Source: a bacterium (lineage in GTDB: Bacteria; Patescibacteriota; Minisyncoccia; Phycocordibacterales; UBA5272). Taken from it: a stretch of DNA of 64,000 bases. Location: positions 3,757-67,756 of the forward strand of contig JAHFNC010000004.1 in the NCBI GenBank assembly GCA_023267535.1, given 5' to 3'. The position numbers were made by a program, and so were the translations under genes. The stretch's first letter is position 1, and every line of letters starts with the position of its first letter. Under the pieces are notes generated by a model. That model was not told the origin of the DNA. It saw nothing but the letters and a program-made list of their open reading frames with translations, and ran no database searches. Shown piece after piece: positions 3,718-58,185 of the stretch.

Positions 3718-4839
3718 ATGAAAAAAGAAAACTGGGAAATAAAAAGTTTTGAAGAATGTCTTGAAAAAGTTGTTTATACAAACAAAATTCAAAGAAAAGA
3801 TTTTCTTGATAATGGAAAGCATCCAGTAATTTCACAAGAGAAAGATTTTGTTAATGGGTACTGGGATAATTCTAAAGATTTATTTAAGGTTAGAAAACCA
3901 GTTATAATTTTTGGTGATCATACACAAGTCTTAAAATATGTAGATTTTGATTTTGTTCTTGGTGCTGATGGTGTAAAAATACTTCAGCCTACAAGTGAGC
4001 TAGAACCAAGATTTTTTTACTATTATTTACAAAACATAAATATTGGTAGTTTAGGATACGCAAGACATTACAGATTATTAAAAGAGAGTGAAGTAGAATT
4101 TCCAAAGTCTCTTTTAGAACAGCAACGCATAGTGTCAGTTTTAGATAAAGCATTCGTTGATATATCTAAAGCAAAAGATATTGCTGAACAGAATCTTAAA
4201 AATGCAAAAGAACTTTTTGAAAGTTATTTACAGAGTATGTTTACAAATAAAGGAGATGATTGGGAAGAGAAAACATTAGGCGGTATTGCTTTTGTAAAAA
4301 GTGGAGGAACTCCTTCAAGGTCTAAAAAAGAATACTGGACAGGTAAAATAGCTTGGTATTCGTCGGGTGAATTAAATAATTTGTACACCACAACGCCAGA
4401 AAGATATATTAACGATTTAGCAATTAGTAACTCAAATGCAAAAATCTTTCCAAAAGGTTCTCTTTTAATAGGTATGTATGATACTGCGGCTCTAAAAATG
4501 TCTATATTAGACAGAGACGGTTCTTTTAATCAAGCTATTGCAGGTGTAAAACCTAATGACAAAATTGACTTAACTTTTATTTTACACTCTATCAACTCTA
4601 TCAAACCAGAATTACTTAATTTAAGACGTGGTGTTCGTCAGAAAAATCTAAGTCTTGAAAAGATAAAAAGTATCCCTACCTATGTTCCTCCACTTCAAGT
4701 ACAGAAGAATGTTGTTTCTAAATTAGGAGAACTTTCCACTGAAACAAAAAAACTTGAAGCAATCTATGAACAAAAATTAAATGACTTAGAAGAACTTAAG
4801 AAAAGTATTCTTCAAAAGGTATTTAACGGCGAACTATAA
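3718..4839 (+). CDS. hsdS: Type I restriction-modification system, specificity subunit S
   Basis: 373 aa. Two target-recognition halves, each followed by a conserved helical spacer ('LLEQQRIVSVLDKAF...' and 'LQVQKNVVSKLGEL...'). Confidence 0.9.
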   Translation: MKKENWEIKSFEECLEKVVYTNKIQRKDFLDNGKHPVISQEKDFVNGYWDNSKDLFKVRKPVIIFGDHTQVLKYVDFDFVLGADGVKILQPTSELEPRFFYYYLQNINIGSLGYARHYRLLKESEVEFPKSLLEQQRIVSVLDKAFVDISKAKDIAEQNLKNAKELFESYLQSMFTNKGDDWEEKTLGGIAFVKSGGTPSRSKKEYWTGKIAWYSSGELNNLYTTTPERYINDLAISNSNAKIFPKGSLLIGMYDTAALKMSILDRDGSFNQAIAGVKPNDKIDLTFILHSINSIKPELLNLRRGVRQKNLSLEKIKSIPTYVPPLQVQKNVVSKLGELSTETKKLEAIYEQKLNDLEELKKSILQKVFNGEL

Positions 4840-4860
4840 AAGTGCTATAATGTCAAGATT

Positions 4861-7182
4861 ATGAACGAATCTGAAACAAGGGCAGAGCTAATTGATCCAA
4901 AGCTAAAAGCTTGTGGTTGGGGTGTTGTTGAAGGATCTAAAATACTCCGTGAATACAATATTACTGCTGGTAAAATCCAAACTGGAGGTATAAGAGGAAA
5001 GCTACTTACTGCTGATTATGTATTGGTCTACAAAGGCATAAAATTGGCTGTGGTTGAGGCAAAGAGTGCAAATATAGGAGTTGGTGAGGGTGTTGCACAA
5101 GCCAAGCAATATGCAGAGAAACTAAAAATAGAAACAACCTATTCTACAAACGGAAAAGAGATATACAGTATCTGTATGAAAACTGGTGTTGAGGGTTTGG
5201 TTTCTGGTTATCTCTCACCTGATGAACTTTGGAACAAAACTTTTTCGGTTCAAAATGAATGGAGAGAGAAATTTAGTTCTATTCCTTTTGAAGATAAGAG
5301 TGGCTCTTGGCAATTACGTTATTATCAAGAAATAGCAGTAAAGAATGTTCTTGAATATGTTGCAAATGATAGGGACCGCATTTTGCTCACCTTAGCTACT
5401 GGTACAGGTAAAACAGCTATCGCTTTTCAGATAGTATGGAAACTATTTCAGACAAGATGGAATTTAAAACGTGACGGTTCTCGTCGTCCTCGTATTTTAT
5501 TTTTAGCAGATAGAAACATATTAGCCGACCAAGCATACAACTCTTTTTCTTCATTTCCAGAAGATGCTTTGGTGCGTATTAATCCTAAAGAAATAAGTAA
5601 GAAAGGAAGTGTGCCTACTAATGGGTCTATTTTCTTTACTATCTTTCAAACCTTTATGAGTGGTAAAGATGCCGAGGGAAACCCTGCACCATACTTCGGA
5701 GAATATCCATCTGATTACTTTGATTTTATTATTATAGACGAATGTCATCGTGGCGGTGCAAACGATGAAGGAAACTGGAGAGGTATCTTGGAATATTTTT
5801 CTCCTGCTGTGCAATTAGGTTTAACAGCTACCCCAAAGCGTAAAGATAATGTCGATACATATAAATATTTTGGTGAGCCAGTATATATTTATTCTCTTAA
5901 AGAGGGTATTAATGATGGATTTCTTACACCTTTTAAGGTTAAGCGTATTAAGACAACATTAGACGATTATATTTATACAAGTGATGACCAAATCATCGAA
6001 GGGGAAATCGAGGAAGGAAAACTTTATACCGAACCTGATTTTAATAAGATAATTGAAATTAAAGCGAGAGAAGAAAAGCGTGTGAAGGTATTTATGGACG
6101 AAGCAAATCAAAATGAAAAAGCTATTGTCTTTTGTGCTACTCAAGATCATGCGGCTGCGGTTCGTGATTTAATTAATCAATACAAGAAAAGTGCTGATCC
6201 AAATTATTGTGTCCGTGTTACAGCAAATGATGGAGAGATAGGCGAACAATTTTTAAGAGAATTCCAAGATAACGAAAAAACTATACCAACTATTTTAACG
6301 ACATCACAGAAACTTTCAACTGGAGTAGATGCTAGAAATATACGTAACATTGTACTCATGCGACCAGTGAACTCTATGATTGAATTTAAGCAAATTGTAG
6401 GGCGTGGTACACGTTTATTTGATGGTAAGGAATTCTTTACTATTTATGACTTTGTGGATGCTTATCACCATTTTGCGGATCCTGAATGGGATGGAGAACC
6501 GATCAGTCCAGTAGATGATGAACCTACGGAACCTAAACCACCAAAAGGGGTAGAGGGTGAACCACCTTTTCCTCCAGAACCACCAACAGAACCAAATAAG
6601 AAACTTAAGATTAAATTACGAGATGGAAAAGAACGTGAAATACAACACATGATAGCAACTTCTTTTTGGGGTGCAGACGGTAAACCTATTTCTGTGGAAG
6701 AGTTTTTACAAAACCTGTTTGGGACACTGCCTAGTCTTTTTAAGGGTGAAGAAGAGTTGCGAGAGATATGGAGTAATCCAATAACAAGAAAAAGTTTGTT
6801 AGAAAAACTAGACGAGGCTGGGTATGGAAAAGACGAACTAACTACATTACAGAAATTAATTGACGCTGAAAATAGTGATCTTTTTGATGTGTTGGAATAT
6901 GTATTTAATAGTGACGTTAAACCGATACCAAGAGAGATAAGAGTAGAAACATCACAGGAAACTATTTTTGAATCCCTTAATGATAAACAAAAAGAATTTA
7001 TTGAATTTGTGTTGAGTAAATATATTGAAACAGGTGTAGAAGAATTAGACCAAGAGAAACTACCAATACTTCTTACTAATAAATATCAGTCGCTAGAAGA
7101 TGCAAAAGATACACTAGGTGATATTGATTTGATTCGTTCGATTTTCTTCAAATTCCAAGAGAAACTATACGCAAAAGTATAA
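4861..7182 (+). CDS. hsdR: Type I restriction enzyme, R (helicase/endonuclease) subunit, EcoEI-R-like
   Basis: 773 aa. N-terminal 'SETRAELIDPKL..GW' region. SF2 motifs 'LATGTGKT', 'IIIDECHRG', 'LGLTATP', 'QIVGRGTR'. Pro-rich linker, then a C-terminal domain resembling the EcoEI R C-terminus ('DLFDVLEYVF...'). Confidence 0.93.
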   Translation: MNESETRAELIDPKLKACGWGVVEGSKILREYNITAGKIQTGGIRGKLLTADYVLVYKGIKLAVVEAKSANIGVGEGVAQAKQYAEKLKIETTYSTNGKEIYSICMKTGVEGLVSGYLSPDELWNKTFSVQNEWREKFSSIPFEDKSGSWQLRYYQEIAVKNVLEYVANDRDRILLTLATGTGKTAIAFQIVWKLFQTRWNLKRDGSRRPRILFLADRNILADQAYNSFSSFPEDALVRINPKEISKKGSVPTNGSIFFTIFQTFMSGKDAEGNPAPYFGEYPSDYFDFIIIDECHRGGANDEGNWRGILEYFSPAVQLGLTATPKRKDNVDTYKYFGEPVYIYSLKEGINDGFLTPFKVKRIKTTLDDYIYTSDDQIIEGEIEEGKLYTEPDFNKIIEIKAREEKRVKVFMDEANQNEKAIVFCATQDHAAAVRDLINQYKKSADPNYCVRVTANDGEIGEQFLREFQDNEKTIPTILTTSQKLSTGVDARNIRNIVLMRPVNSMIEFKQIVGRGTRLFDGKEFFTIYDFVDAYHHFADPEWDGEPISPVDDEPTEPKPPKGVEGEPPFPPEPPTEPNKKLKIKLRDGKEREIQHMIATSFWGADGKPISVEEFLQNLFGTLPSLFKGEEELREIWSNPITRKSLLEKLDEAGYGKDELTTLQKLIDAENSDLFDVLEYVFNSDVKPIPREIRVETSQETIFESLNDKQKEFIEFVLSKYIETGVEELDQEKLPILLTNKYQSLEDAKDTLGDIDLIRSIFFKFQEKLYAKV

Positions 7183-18859: not shown

Positions 18860-19486
18860 TTAATCTCTTCTTTCAAAAGCACTTTTGAAAGTGTCACGGT
18901 CAACATACTCAAGTTCCAGCCCAGAAGAAAGTCCTCGCGCAAGAGAAGACATCTTCACATCTTTAATTCCAACAATTTGCGCGAGAGTATTTTCTACATA
19001 TTCTTTGGTGTTATCTCCGTAGTCAGTAACTGGTAAAGCGAAAATTATTTCAGATATTTTTTTGCTTTCAATATCAGAATGAACTCGTGACACTAATTCT
19101 CTTATTCGTATAATTTCCGAAGGCTTGTCAGTTAGTGGTGGAAGAAGTCCTCCTAAAATAAAATACATTCCATTATATGAGCCAGTTTTTTCTATGGCGT
19201 CTAGGTCTAATTCTTTTTCTACAATCATCAAAACATTTTTATCTCTGGACTCAGTGTCACAAATCACACATTTAGTTTTGTCATTTCTTAAATTATTGTC
19301 TCCAAAAAATCTGAAACAAGAGTCGCATTGTTTGCCGGTGAATTTCAATTCTTCCAAGGCTTTGATTAATTGTTCTTTGAAATGAAAATGTTCACGAAGC
19401 AAAAAGTAAACAAACCTCTTGGCTTGTTTTGGTCCAATCCCCGGAAACCTCATAAATAATTCCACCAACTTATCCGAAGCGTTCAT
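18860..19486 (-). CDS. recR: recombination protein RecR
   Basis: 'FPGIGPKQAKRFVYFLL' HhH, a CxxC...CxxC zinc finger and a Toprim region. Confidence 0.95.
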   Translation of the reverse strand: MNASDKLVELFMRFPGIGPKQAKRFVYFLLREHFHFKEQLIKALEELKFTGKQCDSCFRFFGDNNLRNDKTKCVICDTESRDKNVLMIVEKELDLDAIEKTGSYNGMYFILGGLLPPLTDKPSEIIRIRELVSRVHSDIESKKISEIIFALPVTDYGDNTKEYVENTLAQIVGIKDVKMSSLARGLSSGLELEYVDRDTFKSAFERRD

Positions 19487-19564: not shown

Positions 19565-20269
19565 ATGAAGAAAATTCAAGACGACATAATTAGCTACAGA
19601 GAGATGTGTGATATAGAAAATGTTCAAACACTTCAGCGTGGAATGAATTTTCGTATGAACCAAAAATACTCCGTCATATTAATGTCCCAAAGATCAAACG
19701 CTCCATATATTGATAAGGTTCATGCGGATGGTTTAACTATTGAATATGAGGGACACGACGTCTCCAGAATTACAAATGAGCCCGCCTATAATCCAAAGCA
19801 ATATGATCAATCAGAGAAATTACCGAGCGGGAAATTAACACAAAATGGATTTTTTATAAAAGCTGTAAAAGAATTTAAAAAAAGTATGGCTAATCCAGAG
19901 CTTGTTAAAATTTATGAAAAAGTTTTTCCTGGTGTTTGGTCTTTGAAAGGCTATTTTGATCTCATTGATTACAGAAATGTTAGAGATGAAAAAAGAAATG
20001 TGTTTCGCTTTATTCTGAAATTATCAAATCGTCAAGAAAATTATGATTCAAAGGTTGCGAAAATTGAACACACAAGATTGATTCCGTCAGAAGTAAAAAG
20101 AGAGGTTTGGAAACGAGATGATGGAAAGTGTGTTATTTGTGGAGATACAAAAAATTTACACTTTGACCACGATCTTCCTTTTTCAAAAGGGGGCACAAGT
20201 TTATCAACAAAAAATGTGCGCTTACTTTGTATGAGACATAATCTTCAAAAATCAGATAAGATAATTTAG
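19565..20269 (+). CDS. HNH endonuclease with N-terminal SRA/YDG-like domain (candidate type IV modification-dependent restriction enzyme)
   Basis: The C-terminal HNH is clear: 'CVICGDTKNLHFDHDLPFSKGG...NVRLLCMRHNLQKSD'. The N-terminal 'LQRGMNF...SVILMS...APYIDKVHADGLTIEYEGHD...VKIYEKV..GVWSLKGYFDLIDY' resembles SRA-type base-flipping domains. Confidence 0.6.
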   Translation: MKKIQDDIISYREMCDIENVQTLQRGMNFRMNQKYSVILMSQRSNAPYIDKVHADGLTIEYEGHDVSRITNEPAYNPKQYDQSEKLPSGKLTQNGFFIKAVKEFKKSMANPELVKIYEKVFPGVWSLKGYFDLIDYRNVRDEKRNVFRFILKLSNRQENYDSKVAKIEHTRLIPSEVKREVWKRDDGKCVICGDTKNLHFDHDLPFSKGGTSLSTKNVRLLCMRHNLQKSDKII

Positions 20270-20278
20270 TATTTCTAC

Positions 20279-20325
20279 TTATCCACAGTTGTTCTATTGC
20301 AGTAGAACAATCGTTCTAATATACT
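20279..20325 (+). promoter_or_regulatory. lexA promoter with SOS box and upstream DnaA-box-like element
   Basis: TTGCAG (20297-20302), 17 nt, TATACT (20320-20325). The spacer holds TAGAAC-AATC-GTTCTA (20303-20318), a GAAC-N4-GTTC box. Second palindrome TTGTTCTA-N6-TAGAACAA at 20289-20310. TTATCCACA at 20279-20287. Confidence 0.6.
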
Positions 20326-20331
20326 GAATTG

Positions 20332-20895
20332 ATGAATGAGGAAGAAATTTTAATATCATTTTTTACGGAAAATAAAAGAATGCCAACATACGAAGAGATG
20401 AAAGGTCTCTTCGGTGTGGCTTCAAAAAACACTGTGGCTTTCAGAGTAAATAAATTATTAGAAAATGGTTTCTTGATTAAGAAAGGAAGTAAAATTGCTC
20501 TTGCTCAATCTGGCTCAGTTGTGAGATTGGGAACTGTTCAAGCTGGATTTCCAACTACTGCAGACGAAGATGTCGTATCCGAGTTATTATCACTTGATGA
20601 TTTTTTAATAGAAAGAAAGAGTTCAACATATATGTTGGAAGTGGTTGGTGAATCAATGAAAGATGCCGGAATAATTGAAGGCGACTTGGTTTTAGTAGAA
20701 AGAGGAAAGACTCCACGTCGTGGAGATATAGTTCTAGCACTTGTTGATAATGAATACACGCTGAAATATTTAGAAACAGAAAAAGGAAAACCAGTGCTTG
20801 TGCCAGCCAATAAATTATTTAAGAAAATCTATCCAAACCCAAACAAATTAAAAATCGAAGCAGTTTTAAAAGCAGTAATTAGAAAATATAGATAA
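20332..20895 (+). CDS. lexA: LexA repressor (S24 peptidase)
   Basis: wHTH N-terminus, cleavage-site region 'VQAGFP', catalytic Ser context 'VVGESMKDAG' and Lys context 'EYTLKYL'. Confidence 0.9.
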   Translation: MNEEEILISFFTENKRMPTYEEMKGLFGVASKNTVAFRVNKLLENGFLIKKGSKIALAQSGSVVRLGTVQAGFPTTADEDVVSELLSLDDFLIERKSSTYMLEVVGESMKDAGIIEGDLVLVERGKTPRRGDIVLALVDNEYTLKYLETEKGKPVLVPANKLFKKIYPNPNKLKIEAVLKAVIRKYR

Positions 20896-20899
20896 ACAT

Positions 20900-21477
20900 A
20901 TGAAATTATTTAACATCACAATTACAATACAGAGCTCCATAAAAAACGACGAGCCAGTTTACAAAAATGAACTAATAAGTAGACACATTAATTTCGCTTC
21001 AAAACTTACTCAACTTTCTAGATTATAAATAACTATTTCAAATATATGTCACCATCACCACGCGCCATAATACAAATAAGCACAACAGGAAAGAATTTTT
21101 CTCGTATAAATTATAGTCGTCGCATGTATGCCGTCATTAGACGTTATACACCGGACGTGGCTGAGGGTAATATAAATGAATGCTTTGCTGATATAACCGG
21201 ACTTCGCACTTTCTTTAAAATGTCATACAAAGAATTGGCAGAAAAAATTCTTAAAGATTTAAATAAAGAAATTGGTGTGCAATTTACAATCAGAATTACT
21301 TCAATGAAAGCCTTTCAAAATGCAAAAACTAACAGTAGAAACTCCAAGAGTATTTCTACTTACAAAGAATTAAACAAACTTTTTGCCGGACTATCATTTG
21401 TTGAAGCCAAAAATCGTAAAAGCTTAATTAGTAGAAGAAGAAAATTTGCCGTACCATTTATTGGTAAGGTTGCATAA
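20900..21477 (+). pseudogene. decayed Y-family DNA polymerase (DinB/UmuC-like) relic
   Basis: Two frames. 20900-21028: 'LFNITITIQSSIKNDEPVYKNE', compare '..IDMD.FFASVE....P.L.gk'. 21046-21477: 'YSRRMYAVIRRYTPDVAEGNINECFADITGL', compare 'Y...S..i..i...yt..vE..SiDEafLDvTg'. Has a frameshift, internal deletions, a missing thumb/little finger, and substituted catalytic acids. Confidence 0.65.
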
Positions 21478-21483
21478 TTATTT

Positions 21484-22026
21484 TTGGTCGTGAAAGAGAT
21501 AAGCTATAAATTAAAAATTAGTAAAAAATCCAAAAGATTAAAACTTGCTGTCTATCATGACGGTACTGTTTTGGTTACTGTTCCCAGAGGTGTAACTAAA
21601 GAAATTGTTAAGAGTTTTGTGTTAAGTAAATATAAATGGATTACTAAAAAAGTAGAATTTTTTAAAAAGTATCCAGCTAGAGCACTGCCTAAAAATAATA
21701 AGAAAGCTTTTGAAGAAAATAAAGAGGTGGCTTACAAGATTGCTATTGAAAGACTAGAGCATTTTAATAAGTTCTATAAATTGAAATGGAATAACATAAC
21801 CATAAAGAATACAAAAACCCGCTGGGGAAGTTGTTCAAGAAAAGGAAATTTAAATTTTAATTACAAAATAGCACTACTTTCTCCAAAGCTTAGAGATTAC
21901 ATAATCGTTCATGAGCTTTGCCATTTAGGAGAATTCAACCACTCGCAAAAGTTTTGGACATTAGTTTCAAAAACTATTCCAAATTATTTAGAGTTAAAAA
22001 AGGAACTAAAAATAAATATTTTTTAA
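21484..22026 (+). CDS. YgjP-like (DUF45/M48-related) zinc metalloprotease
   Basis: 'RWGSCSRKGNLNFNYKI' and 'HELCHLGEFNHSQKFW' (HExxH). Confidence 0.85.
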   Translation: MVVKEISYKLKISKKSKRLKLAVYHDGTVLVTVPRGVTKEIVKSFVLSKYKWITKKVEFFKKYPARALPKNNKKAFEENKEVAYKIAIERLEHFNKFYKLKWNNITIKNTKTRWGSCSRKGNLNFNYKIALLSPKLRDYIIVHELCHLGEFNHSQKFWTLVSKTIPNYLELKKELKINIF

Positions 22027-37418: not shown

Positions 37419-38420
37419 ATGTCTAATTCATCTAATAAAAAAGTTCTAGTTTCTGGTATAAAACCAACTGGCCGACTTCACTTCGGAAATTATTTTGGAG
37501 CAATGAAGCAGAATATAGAACTTGGAAATAGTGGTGAATACGAAAGCTATGTATTCATTGCTGACTATCATGCTTTAACAACAGTTAAAAATGGTGATGA
37601 ATTGAGAAAACAAACTATTGAGGCGGTGGCCTCATATCTTGCTTGTGGTCTTGATACAACTAAAGTTATTTTATTTAAGCAATCAGATGTCAGAGAAGTG
37701 ACCGAACTTACTTGGATATTTAATAACTTGGTAACGGTTCCTTACATGATGAGAGCTCACGCTTTCAAAGACCAAGAAGCTAGAAGTAAAGATGTTAATG
37801 TTGGATTATTTGATTATCCAGTTCTAATGGCATCAGATATTTTAATTTATGATGCTGATATTGTGCCGGTTGGAGCGGACCAAAAGCAACATATTGAATA
37901 CGCTCGTGACATCGCTGGGTATTATAACCGTGCCTATAACATTGAAGAATTTAAATTACCAAAAGAATTAATAATGGCCGGAGTAGAAAATGTTCCTGGT
38001 ATTGATGGACAAAAAATGAGTAAGAGTTATAACAATCATATTGAACTTTTTTGCTCTGATGATGAATTAAAAAAGAGAGTTATGAGTATTGTTACAGATA
38101 GCGCCACACCTGAAGACAAAAAGAATCCCGATGAAAATAATATTTACAAAATTCATAAACTTTTTTTGAATAAAGAAGCAGATGAGGTGTTGCGTTCTAA
38201 ATTTTCAAATGGCGGATACAGTTACAAGGAAGCTAAAGAAGAATTACTAGCAACAATAATGAAATGGAGAGAAGGGAAGCTAGAAAAATATAATCACCTT
38301 GTGGATAACTTTTCAGAATTAAATTCACTACTTGAGAAGAATGGAGGGGTTGCTTGCGAAAAAGCAAAAATTAAAATGGAGAAAATTAGAAAAACAGTAG
38401 GATTAACAAATACTTTTTAG
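37419..38420 (+). CDS. trpS: tryptophan--tRNA ligase
   Basis: HIGH-type 'TGRLHFGNYFG', 'GADQKQH' and 'KMSKS'. Confidence 0.93.
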   Translation: MSNSSNKKVLVSGIKPTGRLHFGNYFGAMKQNIELGNSGEYESYVFIADYHALTTVKNGDELRKQTIEAVASYLACGLDTTKVILFKQSDVREVTELTWIFNNLVTVPYMMRAHAFKDQEARSKDVNVGLFDYPVLMASDILIYDADIVPVGADQKQHIEYARDIAGYYNRAYNIEEFKLPKELIMAGVENVPGIDGQKMSKSYNNHIELFCSDDELKKRVMSIVTDSATPEDKKNPDENNIYKIHKLFLNKEADEVLRSKFSNGGYSYKEAKEELLATIMKWREGKLEKYNHLVDNFSELNSLLEKNGGVACEKAKIKMEKIRKTVGLTNTF

Positions 38421-40673: not shown

Positions 40674-41801
40674 ATGTTTCGTAAAAATTTATTACTTCTA
40701 ACATTTTTAATATCAATGTTTAGTTTCGCTTCCGCGGCAACTTTTGATAAAGCAATATGGATTCCTTATTGGGGAAAAACAGGTGGGGCGTCATCTACTC
40801 TTCCTAATTTATCTTCAATTACTCAAATCAGTCCTTTTTCTTTCGAATTACAAACTGATGGAACATTAAAAAATGCTTTAAAAATAGAGGAGGCTCCTTG
40901 GCCTGATTTAATCGCTCAAGCAAAAAAGAAAGGAATAAAAATTTATCCAAGTATTTTATCTTATCCACATAACGATAAAGAAAAACAAATTCAATATTTA
41001 CTACTTGCTCAAAAAGCAAAACGTATCGCTCACGAAAAAGCAATTGTTGCTTTAGTTAAAAAATATAAGTTCGATGGAATAGACATAGACTACGAAGCAA
41101 AGATTGCTGAAACTAAACCATATTTCTCGGCCTTCTTAACAGAACTAGGAAAATTACTTCACGCCAGTAATAAAAAATTAATTTGCACCGTGGAAGCTAG
41201 AACTCCGCCGGAAAGTAGATATGCCACAACTTCCACTCAAGTATTATCAAAAGTGGAATACGCAAATGACTACAAAGTGATTGGAAAGGTTTGTGACCAA
41301 GTTCGCATTATGACTTATGACCAATTAAATGATGACGCTTCACTTGTGCAAGATAACTCTGCTTATCTTTATAGACCAGTATCTGATATAACTTGGGTTA
41401 AAAAAGTTTTAACTTTAGCATTAGAAGATATACCTGCTAAGAAAATACTAGTCGGTGTTGCAACTTATGGTTATAAGTATGAAATAATTTCTGGAACAGC
41501 CACTAGCACTAGATATATTCGTATTGGTTCTATGAATTTTATTTATGCTGATCAATTAGCAAAATCAATCGGAATAACTCCAACCAGAAATACAGCCGGG
41601 GAATTATCTTTTAATTATGCCACGACAACTGATTACTCTGGACAATCTTTGGGTGGTTGGAAACAGTACATGGTTTGGTATTCAGACGCTCAAGCCATTG
41701 CTGATAAAATAAAAATCGCAAAATTATATAAATTGGGAGGGGTGGCTATATTTAAAATAGACGGCTCGCAAGATGAAAATATTTGGAAAGTAATAAAATA
41801 G
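40674..41801 (+). CDS. secreted glycoside hydrolase family 18 (chitinase-like) protein
   Basis: Signal peptide and the catalytic 'FDGIDIDYE' (DxxDxDxE). Confidence 0.85.
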   Translation: MFRKNLLLLTFLISMFSFASAATFDKAIWIPYWGKTGGASSTLPNLSSITQISPFSFELQTDGTLKNALKIEEAPWPDLIAQAKKKGIKIYPSILSYPHNDKEKQIQYLLLAQKAKRIAHEKAIVALVKKYKFDGIDIDYEAKIAETKPYFSAFLTELGKLLHASNKKLICTVEARTPPESRYATTSTQVLSKVEYANDYKVIGKVCDQVRIMTYDQLNDDASLVQDNSAYLYRPVSDITWVKKVLTLALEDIPAKKILVGVATYGYKYEIISGTATSTRYIRIGSMNFIYADQLAKSIGITPTRNTAGELSFNYATTTDYSGQSLGGWKQYMVWYSDAQAIADKIKIAKLYKLGGVAIFKIDGSQDENIWKVIK

Positions 41802-58078: not shown

Positions 58079-58185
58079 ATCTTAAGCCCTGTTGATAAGA
58101 TGCGCAATAGAACAACTGTGGATATAAAAAGTCCTTATTTTACAAGGTTTTTTTGGAAAATAAAATATTTTAGTTATCCACAGTT
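58079..58185 (-). promoter_or_regulatory. nrdD promoter region with three DnaA-box-like elements and the 20-mer shared with lexA
   Basis: On the minus strand: TTGCGC (58107-58102), 17 nt, TAAGAT (58084-58079). TTATCAACA (58098-58090) sits in the spacer. ATATCCACA at 58125-58117. TTATCCACA on the plus strand at 58174-58182. 58104-58123 is the exact reverse complement of 20281-20300. Confidence 0.55.

Follow-up and report, generated by a model that had tools for sequence, protein, structure and literature searches.

In a 64-kb stretch of DNA from a bacterium of the Patescibacteriota (AT-rich, 33.7% G+C; hereafter the window), a gene for a protein of 143 amino acids (aa) that we call mini-Y is located downstream of lexA (Table 1). 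Comparison with related sequences demonstrates that this protein is homologous to the palm domain of Y-family DNA polymerases, that it has lost whole domains together with catalytic residues, that it is under purifying selection and that it is linked to lexA and the LexA operator. We consider it reasonably probable that positions 20303-21477 constitute a LexA-autoregulated operon and that mini-Y is a selected, dead polymerase derivative, which acts non-enzymatically as an adaptor in the SOS response. The original prediction, made by reading the letters alone, had regarded the region as a decaying polymerase gene and a snapshot of reductive evolution, and had mentioned a repurposed non-catalytic fragment as the less likely explanation. 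Both open reading frames (ORFs) on which it was based, one starting 4 nucleotides (nt) after the lexA stop codon (20895) and one in a second frame at 21046-21477, are present together with the quoted peptides, but it is the repurposed fragment that fits the evidence better.

Homology, domain losses and conservation of mini-Y

The mini-Y ORF, which contains YSRRMYAVIRRYTPDVAEGNINECFADITGL and begins 17 nt after the preceding 42-codon ORF in a different frame, matches the Pfam family IMS (PF00817) with 30.6 bits at a cut-off of 23.2 (profile positions 74-136 of 148). IMS was likewise recognized in 30 out of 30 aligned members of the mini-Y family, and several Pol IV models in NCBIfam match the window protein locally. 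A search of 1.84 billion representative proteins with the profile built from this 30-sequence alignment returned the short family first (E <= 1e-23), followed at E of about 1e-17 by polymerases of about 410-450 aa, which carry IMS, IMS_HHH and IMS_C, resemble Pol IV and are always matched at their residues ~85-165. A profile-profile comparison of mini-Y with these full-length relatives by hhalign gave a probability of 99.7% and an E-value of 4.9e-27 over 86 columns, and the Y-family assignment that had been made by eye for this ORF is thereby confirmed. The homology to the Y-family palm extends from sequence to fold, as the AlphaFold (AF2) model, with a predicted local distance difference test score (pLDDT) of 77, has the palm order strand-helix-hairpin-helix-strand-helix.

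A word-indexed search of 5.8 billion proteins yielded at least 194 homologues of mini-Y with 53-71% identity, nearly all of them 141-153 aa long and derived from NCBI, JGI, ENA and Logan assemblies labelled Nomurabacteria or Paceibacterota. In the alignment of 30 family sequences, 24 columns are invariant and 28 near-invariant; none of the 24 invariant residues is missing from the window copy. The proteins are strongly basic, with a median isoelectric point of 10.2 and a net charge of +16. The same architecture was found in 27 genomes of the GTDB, whose loci we compared, and in many contigs from Logan, JGI and ENA, and lexA lies directly upstream of mini-Y in all 26 loci that include sequence upstream of the gene. 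Among the 27 genome loci, the ratio of nonsynonymous to synonymous substitution rates (dN/dS; Nei-Gojobori, with synonymous sites near saturation overall) was 0.03-0.17 in the closest pairs, and the window compared with its nearest GTDB relatives gave 0.20-0.27. As the length is constant, dN/dS ranges from 0.03 to 0.27 and both termini are retained, mini-Y is evidently a functional gene under purifying selection and not a pseudogene.

When short and full-length sequences were aligned with E-INS-i, they proved collinear over their entire length, and the losses can be located. The mini-Y N-terminus (xSPRAIIxITTSGK) aligns with that of the full-length proteins (xFPRAIvHvDGDaFF; hhalign of the N-termini, P 2.2e-4), and AF2 predicts a strand at residues 8-13. 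The fingers, about 65 residues between strand beta-1 and the palm helix, have given way to a short loop (GKNFSRIN, about 8 residues). The palm core, which is RRM-like, is kept. Thumb and little finger gave no IMS_HHH or IMS_C match in mini-Y, about 220 residues are missing there in the alignment, and coding remnants of these domains were not found in any frame at the loci. The beta-clamp motif Q.[DS]LF, which follows the little finger in the full-length relatives, is not among the retained columns. The original prediction placed the end of the ORF ahead of thumb and little finger, which holds with regard to the missing domains, but it overlooked that the last ~40 residues correspond to the C-terminal tail of the full-length proteins. 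Because both termini are homologous to full-length termini, mini-Y is, judged by the alignment, the product of clean in-frame domain losses that kept both ends, and not of a truncation.

Catalysis by Y-family polymerases involves three metal-binding carboxylates, which are D7, D105 and E106 in Dpo4, and the dinB allele D103N of E. coli is catalytically dead. In mini-Y, the DGD of strand beta-1 is changed to STT in the window and to TTS, STS or TTT in most other members. The change from SIDE to NINE, which had been noticed correctly, is a property of the whole family: N44 is invariant in the 30-sequence alignment, and a census of 113 members at the former Asp-Glu pair found NE in 105, SE in 4 and NQ in 4, with Asp in none of them. 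With two of the three carboxylates replaced, catalysis is almost certainly lost, and because fingers, thumb and little finger are gone as well, mini-Y should be unable to synthesize DNA. In this respect the original prediction is supported.

The tail deserves particular attention. Its consensus in mini-Y consists of STYKEiNKLFaG.SF, a basic linker and RRLtVPFLGKV, and the extreme C-terminus of the full-length clade reads ..aiD.l..kYGk.tv.LaSSl....KRL.IPFLGEV. Both tails were aligned by hhalign with a probability of 91.9% and an E-value of 6.8e-7, and a second stretch of the hidden Markov model places the end of the mini-Y profile on the last residues of ~20 out of 65 full-length proteins. The members of the full-length clade, studied in 80 metagenomic loci (L028-L107, 31-67% G+C), share the motif [KR]L.[IL]P[FY]LG.V at the extreme C-terminus, downstream of QxxLF and of a segment resembling the N-terminus of RecA (RecA-NT-like), so that three tail elements can be distinguished in them. 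Their tails show weak matches to DUF4113, and hhalign against three non-cognate RecA N-termini, a comparison of little weight, resulted in P 1.1e-4. It has been described that the C-terminal tails of bacterial Y-family proteins bind the beta clamp (via QxxLF), RecA and a small subunit, and that a small subunit such as UmuD' is bound via the very C-terminus of UmuC (PMC6511836; PMC12926913). The mini-Y tail is near-invariant and yet predicted to be flexible (pLDDT ~58), a combination that we take as the signature of a docking motif.

The probable lexA operon and the probable origin of mini-Y

The lexA product matches Pfam Peptidase_S24 with 85 bits, the LexA model TIGR00498 over its full length with 98.8 bits and the UmuD model with 101.9 bits, and its translation shows the Ala-Gly cleavage site (VQAGFP) as well as the Ser (GESMKD) and the Lys (TLKYL). 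Across 26 related loci the identity of LexA is 75-86%, a higher conservation than that of mini-Y. The operator TAGAACAATCGTTCTA is the sole perfect GAAC-N4-GTTC box in the window, and a box upstream of lexA is kept in 25 out of 25 related loci in which this region was compared; lexA and its operator are thus intact, as originally stated. The sequence TTGTTCTATTG preceding the box is conserved in essentially all related loci, and no operator box was found ahead of mini-Y in the loci compared. The 9-mer TTATCCACA, located 16 nt upstream of the operator, occurs four times in the window, where 0.58 copies are expected by chance, and might serve these bacteria as a promoter or regulatory element.

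A putative -10 element (TAATAT, 20317-20322) overlaps the operator and is only about 10 nt away from the ATG of lexA at 20332. Shine-Dalgarno-like sequences were not found before lexA, the small ORF or mini-Y. The position of the -10 element close to the ATG, together with the missing Shine-Dalgarno sequence, suggests a leaderless or near-leaderless lexA mRNA. As lexA and mini-Y share the same strand, with gaps of 4-385 nt and no separate box, co-transcription of both genes and SOS induction of mini-Y are likely. Four of the related loci contain additional perfect GAAC-N4-GTTC boxes (L005 at 6760, L012 at 7134, L018 at 6123 and L024 at 6730), about 2.5-3 kb downstream of mini-Y and in two cases inside the 3' part of ychF.

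Which kind of operon mini-Y is derived from can be deduced from its full-length relatives. In about 60 of their 80 loci a lexA homologue is located directly upstream of the polymerase gene, often with the same type of box, and because of this frequency the arrangement of lexA and polymerase is, as far as comparative data tell, ancestral and widespread. The ancestral SOS operon assumed in the original prediction is therefore supported. In several of these loci, unrelated genes are inserted between lexA and the polymerase gene.

One related locus, L016 (CAZNVC010000015), contains lexA, the small ORF, mini-Y and a full-length polymerase gene in a row. The latter (4577-5745) runs off the end of the locus but is apparently intact and carries HIDGDAFF, SIDECFADLTGL, QSDLFGE and the RecA-NT-like RIDQLENKFGKKVVHLGS. 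Since mini-Y and an intact polymerase stand side by side in L016, mini-Y is probably a duplicated and then reduced paralogue, and the full-length copy may have been lost or moved later in most lineages. A second polymerase was found neither within ~4 kb in the other 26 loci nor in the window, and no further pair of mini-Y and a full-length gene was seen, also not among the 80 loci of the full-length relatives.

The small ORF between lexA and mini-Y had been interpreted as the N-terminus of DinB/UmuC and, together with mini-Y, as one half of a broken gene. This part of the original prediction did not hold, since the true homologue of the polymerase N-terminus is found in the opening segment of mini-Y itself. 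The 42-aa peptide had no match in Pfam or NCBIfam, its profile found no Y-family chain in the PDB, and hhalign returned probabilities of 0.1% against 25 full-length relatives and 1.8% against mini-Y. A fragment of a larger protein, ImuB-C or YolD, was considered as well and rejected, as a database search retrieved 21 called proteins, all of 35-67 aa and none longer. A programmed frameshift or readthrough joining both ORFs was also discarded, because frame and spacing vary among the loci and stop codons intervene. The gaps between lexA and the polymerase gene of the full-length relatives hold nothing similar to the peptide.

A corresponding ORF (consensus MKILNLSIEIxxxxKxxESxYLSRRSDFxxRLTQLSEL) is present between lexA and mini-Y in 19 of the 27 loci (with a clear alignment in 14) and missing in eight; it also occurs at the loci of closer relatives (L108, L111), where it was annotated by gene callers. 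Its coding signature is apparent from a ratio of nonsynonymous to synonymous differences per site (pN/pS) of 0.07-0.45, with third codon positions varying most and, for example, 12 synonymous and 3 nonsynonymous differences between L001 and L005. The copies of the window and of L109 are divergent versions. The AF2 model is of low confidence and contains a C-terminal helix only. On these comparative grounds the small ORF is an independent micro-protein family and not a part of the polymerase gene.

Proposed role and alternative explanations

According to the proposed adaptor function, mini-Y would be made upon cleavage of LexA, its very basic palm module could sit on DNA, and the flexible, near-invariant tail would attach to a protein that had been a partner of the ancestral polymerase. 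One candidate partner is RecA, which might be contacted via the degenerate RecA-NT-like segment; another is the UmuD-like C-terminal domain of LexA, in the manner of a small subunit, via the terminal motif [KR]L.VPFLGKV. In this way mini-Y might influence how the cell responds to damage or how any translesion polymerase still present works, or it might compete with a polymerase for these partners.

Several observations weigh against this proposal. Contact with DNA and the choice of partner are both inferred, and mini-Y no longer has the canonical clamp motif. Its RecA-NT-like segment, with the helix in it, is shortened and, taken alone, not significantly similar to the three RecA N-termini, and two alignments place it differently. 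Within the stretches scanned, a full-length polymerase was seen at one of the 27 loci. Furthermore, a scan for promoters and terminators was uninformative, and the micro-protein copy of the window may be decaying.

Among known proteins, ImuB and iPolY (scDinB2-like, Kyrpidia-type) resemble mini-Y, as they are derived from the Y-family, have lost carboxylates and are LexA-regulated or linked to lexA (PMC6511836; PMC12926913), and as they are kept under selection, presumably for protein-protein interactions of the C-terminal tail. They retain, however, fingers, thumb, little finger, the clamp motif, a clear RecA-NT motif and often ImuB-C, whereas mini-Y is reduced to palm and tail; ImuB-C is absent from mini-Y, which ends 40 residues after the palm. 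In addition, ImuB and iPolY travel with imuA and dnaE2, whereas mini-Y is accompanied by ygjP and ychF; imuA and dnaE2 are not among its neighbours, with the limit that no dedicated whole-genome search for dnaE2 was made. A second group for comparison are the lexA-polY operons, such as the lexA-imuB-C-polY / lexA-dinB operon of Geobacter sulfurreducens (Jara et al., 2003, as cited in PMC6511836) and the proposed PolY-RecA mutasome type (PMC12926913). The Geobacter-type operons share with the mini-Y locus the order of lexA and a Y-family gene behind an operator of the GAAC-N4-GTTC type, and the same lexA-polY arrangement is found for the closest full-length relatives of mini-Y with their QxxLF, RecA-NT-like and terminal motifs. 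In contrast to these operons, the polymerase is reduced here to a dead palm, and the gene in between encodes a lineage-specific micro-protein instead of ImuB-C. Stand-alone ImuB-C and YqjX/YolD-like small subunits, which comprise the N-terminal arm only, are known to persist beside polY (PMC6511836; PMC12926913), but none of these stand-alone mutasome modules is a palm domain, and the micro-protein matches neither YolD nor any Pfam family.

Catalytically dead full-length enzymes offer a further comparison. DinB D103N (dinB003) of E. coli is the classical dead SIDE allele, dead proteins of this kind still act via their binding partners, and UmuD2C has non-catalytic checkpoint roles. In both cases the protein is of full length and binds the beta clamp, whereas mini-Y has neither the clamp motif nor the domains that grip DNA. 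Taken together, mini-Y is best filed as an extreme form of an inactive Y-family homologue, which qualifies neither as an ImuB-type protein nor as a polymerase.

Of the alternatives to a free-standing adaptor, an accessory or regulatory subunit of a full-length PolY or a DnaE2-type enzyme, in the sense of an ImuB-like hub or a natural dominant-negative, survives best; we regard it as possible but not likely, and it is a special case of the adaptor explanation rather than exclusive of it. The intact polymerase of L016, which directly follows mini-Y in the same operon, is in line with such a function, and precedents exist in the inactive scaffolds ImuB and iPolY (PMC6511836, PMC12926913). The tail of mini-Y is moreover homologous to that of the polymerase, and therefore both would bind the same partner. 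This has to be set against the missing second polymerase near the other 26 mini-Y genes and in the window, against the lack of any pair of both genes in the 80 full-length loci, and against the absence of clamp motif, little finger and ImuB-C from mini-Y.

An extension of the adaptor function goes further: mini-Y might form the central output of a minimal SOS system in bacteria of the candidate phyla radiation (CPR), a 'Pol V-like' regulatory particle without polymerase. After RecA-stimulated cleavage of LexA, the tail of the dead, DNA-binding palm would receive the UmuD'-like C-terminal domain of LexA, RecA or both, possibly together with the micro-protein, and this complex would serve as a damage checkpoint by capping RecA filaments or sitting on primer ends. 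We regard this chain of assumptions as rather unlikely in its entirety. If true, it would represent a previously undescribed class of SOS effectors that emerged from a translesion polymerase by domain-by-domain reduction.

It is also conceivable that mini-Y and the micro-protein form a split protein, in which the 42-aa peptide supplies a strand or a helix to complete the truncated palm. The constant order of lexA, micro-protein and mini-Y wherever the micro-protein is present would agree with this idea, as would the beta-strand-like N-terminal segment and the predicted C-terminal helix of the peptide, and short N-terminal-arm subunits that insert into PolY have been described (PMC12926913). 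However, the eight loci without the micro-protein have an otherwise normal mini-Y, the peptide shows no detectable homology to polymerase N-termini or YolD, mini-Y holds a beta-1 strand of its own, and the structural model of the peptide is of low confidence. We therefore give this arrangement only a slim chance.

A pseudogene, that is, a lexA-linked polymerase gene decaying via deletions and a frameshift with both ORFs as its remains, is very improbable. The replaced catalytic residues and the missing domains had led to this interpretation, and the 42-aa ORF of the window, which deviates from the family consensus, as well as the somewhat higher dN/dS of the window against its nearest relatives (0.20-0.27), would be compatible with it. 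Decay is contradicted by at least 194 sequence clusters, drawn from independent assemblies, that share the 143-aa architecture down to its start and stop, by the linkage to lexA in 26 out of 26 loci and by the intact paralogue in L016. Nor is decay reconcilable with a dN/dS of the 143-aa ORF well below 1 or with the preservation of the 24 invariant residues and both termini, and the first ORF has a coding signature of its own and is a member of another family. The chance that a frameshift or collapse in the assembly hides an intact full-length polymerase is practically negligible: nothing speaks for it except that a metagenome-assembled genome makes it possible a priori, the ~590 nt between the lexA stop and the ygjP start are too short for the ~1250 nt needed, the architecture recurs in the independent assemblies, and no remnant of thumb or little finger exists in any frame.

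Two systematic surveys of the bacterial Y-family dropped poorly aligned, strongly diverged or truncated sequences, and proteins such as mini-Y are not mentioned in them (PMC6511836, PMC12926913); full-text searches returned nothing relevant that links the Y-family, LexA and CPR/Patescibacteria. Genes of this kind are easily called truncated or pseudogenized dinB or are discarded. Mini-Y represents a natural separation-of-function construct for the non-catalytic roles and the tail interactions of Y-family enzymes, and the uncharacterized terminal motif [KR]L.[IL]PFLG.V is common to mini-Y and a widespread clade of lexA-linked polymerases. As LexA, operator and mini-Y are kept as a fixed module in CPR/Paceibacteria, the role of the SOS response in reduced genomes becomes directly testable.

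Features of the region and neighbouring genes

Table 1. Coordinates of the lexA/mini-Y region and of the additional 9-mer copies (numbering of the window; residues refer to mini-Y).
Feature	Position	Strand	Description
9-mer TTATCCACA	20279-20287	+	DnaA-box-type; same position in 24 of 25 related loci
LexA operator TAGAACAATCGTTCTA	20303-20318	+	perfect palindrome of the GAAC-N4-GTTC type (TAGAAC-N4-GTTCTA)
lexA	20329-20895	+	188 aa; winged helix-turn-helix and S24 self-cleaving peptidase; likely start ATG 20332
Small ORF	20900-21028	+	42 aa (MKLFNITITIQSSIK...); starts 4 nt after the lexA stop; micro-protein family
mini-Y	21046-21477	+	143 aa; palm-plus-tail, catalytically dead Y-family derivative
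Beta-1 homologue RAIIQISTT	21061-21087	+	residues 6-14; matches PRAIvHvDGD; both Asp replaced (S12, T14)
Palm core	21100-21357	+	residues 19-104; homologous to full-length residues 80-165
NINE, former SIDE	21169-21180	+	residues 42-45; catalytic Asp replaced by Asn44, Glu45 retained
C-terminal tail STYKELNKLFAG.SF	21355-21474	+	residues 104-143; followed by basic linker and terminal motif
Terminal motif [KR]L.VPF[LI]GKV	21439-21474	+	residues 132-143; end of the mini-Y tail
YgjP-like zinc metallopeptidase gene	21484-22026	+	Pfam YgjP-like, 148.7 bits
Further copy of TTATCCACA	38300-38308	-	
Further copy of TTATCCACA	40961-40969		
Further copy of TTATCCACA	58174-58182		

The gene following mini-Y, ygjP (PF01863), is weakly similar to WLM and SprT; it begins 6-12 nt past the mini-Y stop and in the window probably shares the transcript of mini-Y. 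It is located near lexA and mini-Y in 9 of the 27 loci, variously upstream or downstream, and a link to the processing of DNA damage is conceivable. The next gene on the same strand is ychF, and across the loci the neighbours of mini-Y comprise ygjP, ychF, RNase H and comEC-like genes. A gene for recA was not found in the window or the related loci, and Rfam gave no match to a structured RNA between 19000 and 24500. An origin from a defence system or a phage was considered as well and rejected, as PADLOC and PHROGs returned UmuD/LexA-like and DNA-polymerase matches only.

On the other side of the operon, just upstream of the lexA promoter, an ORF at 19565-20269 resembles an HNH endonuclease, with weak HNH/HNH_5 matches and a C-terminal CxxC...H. 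An HNH gene likewise lies upstream of lexA in the locus of P0017 (L109, 1-361). Further upstream, the translation of a minus-strand ORF (18860-19486; MNASDKLVELFMRFPGIGPKQAKRF...) resembles recR by eye, which would place a recombination-repair gene beside the lexA module.

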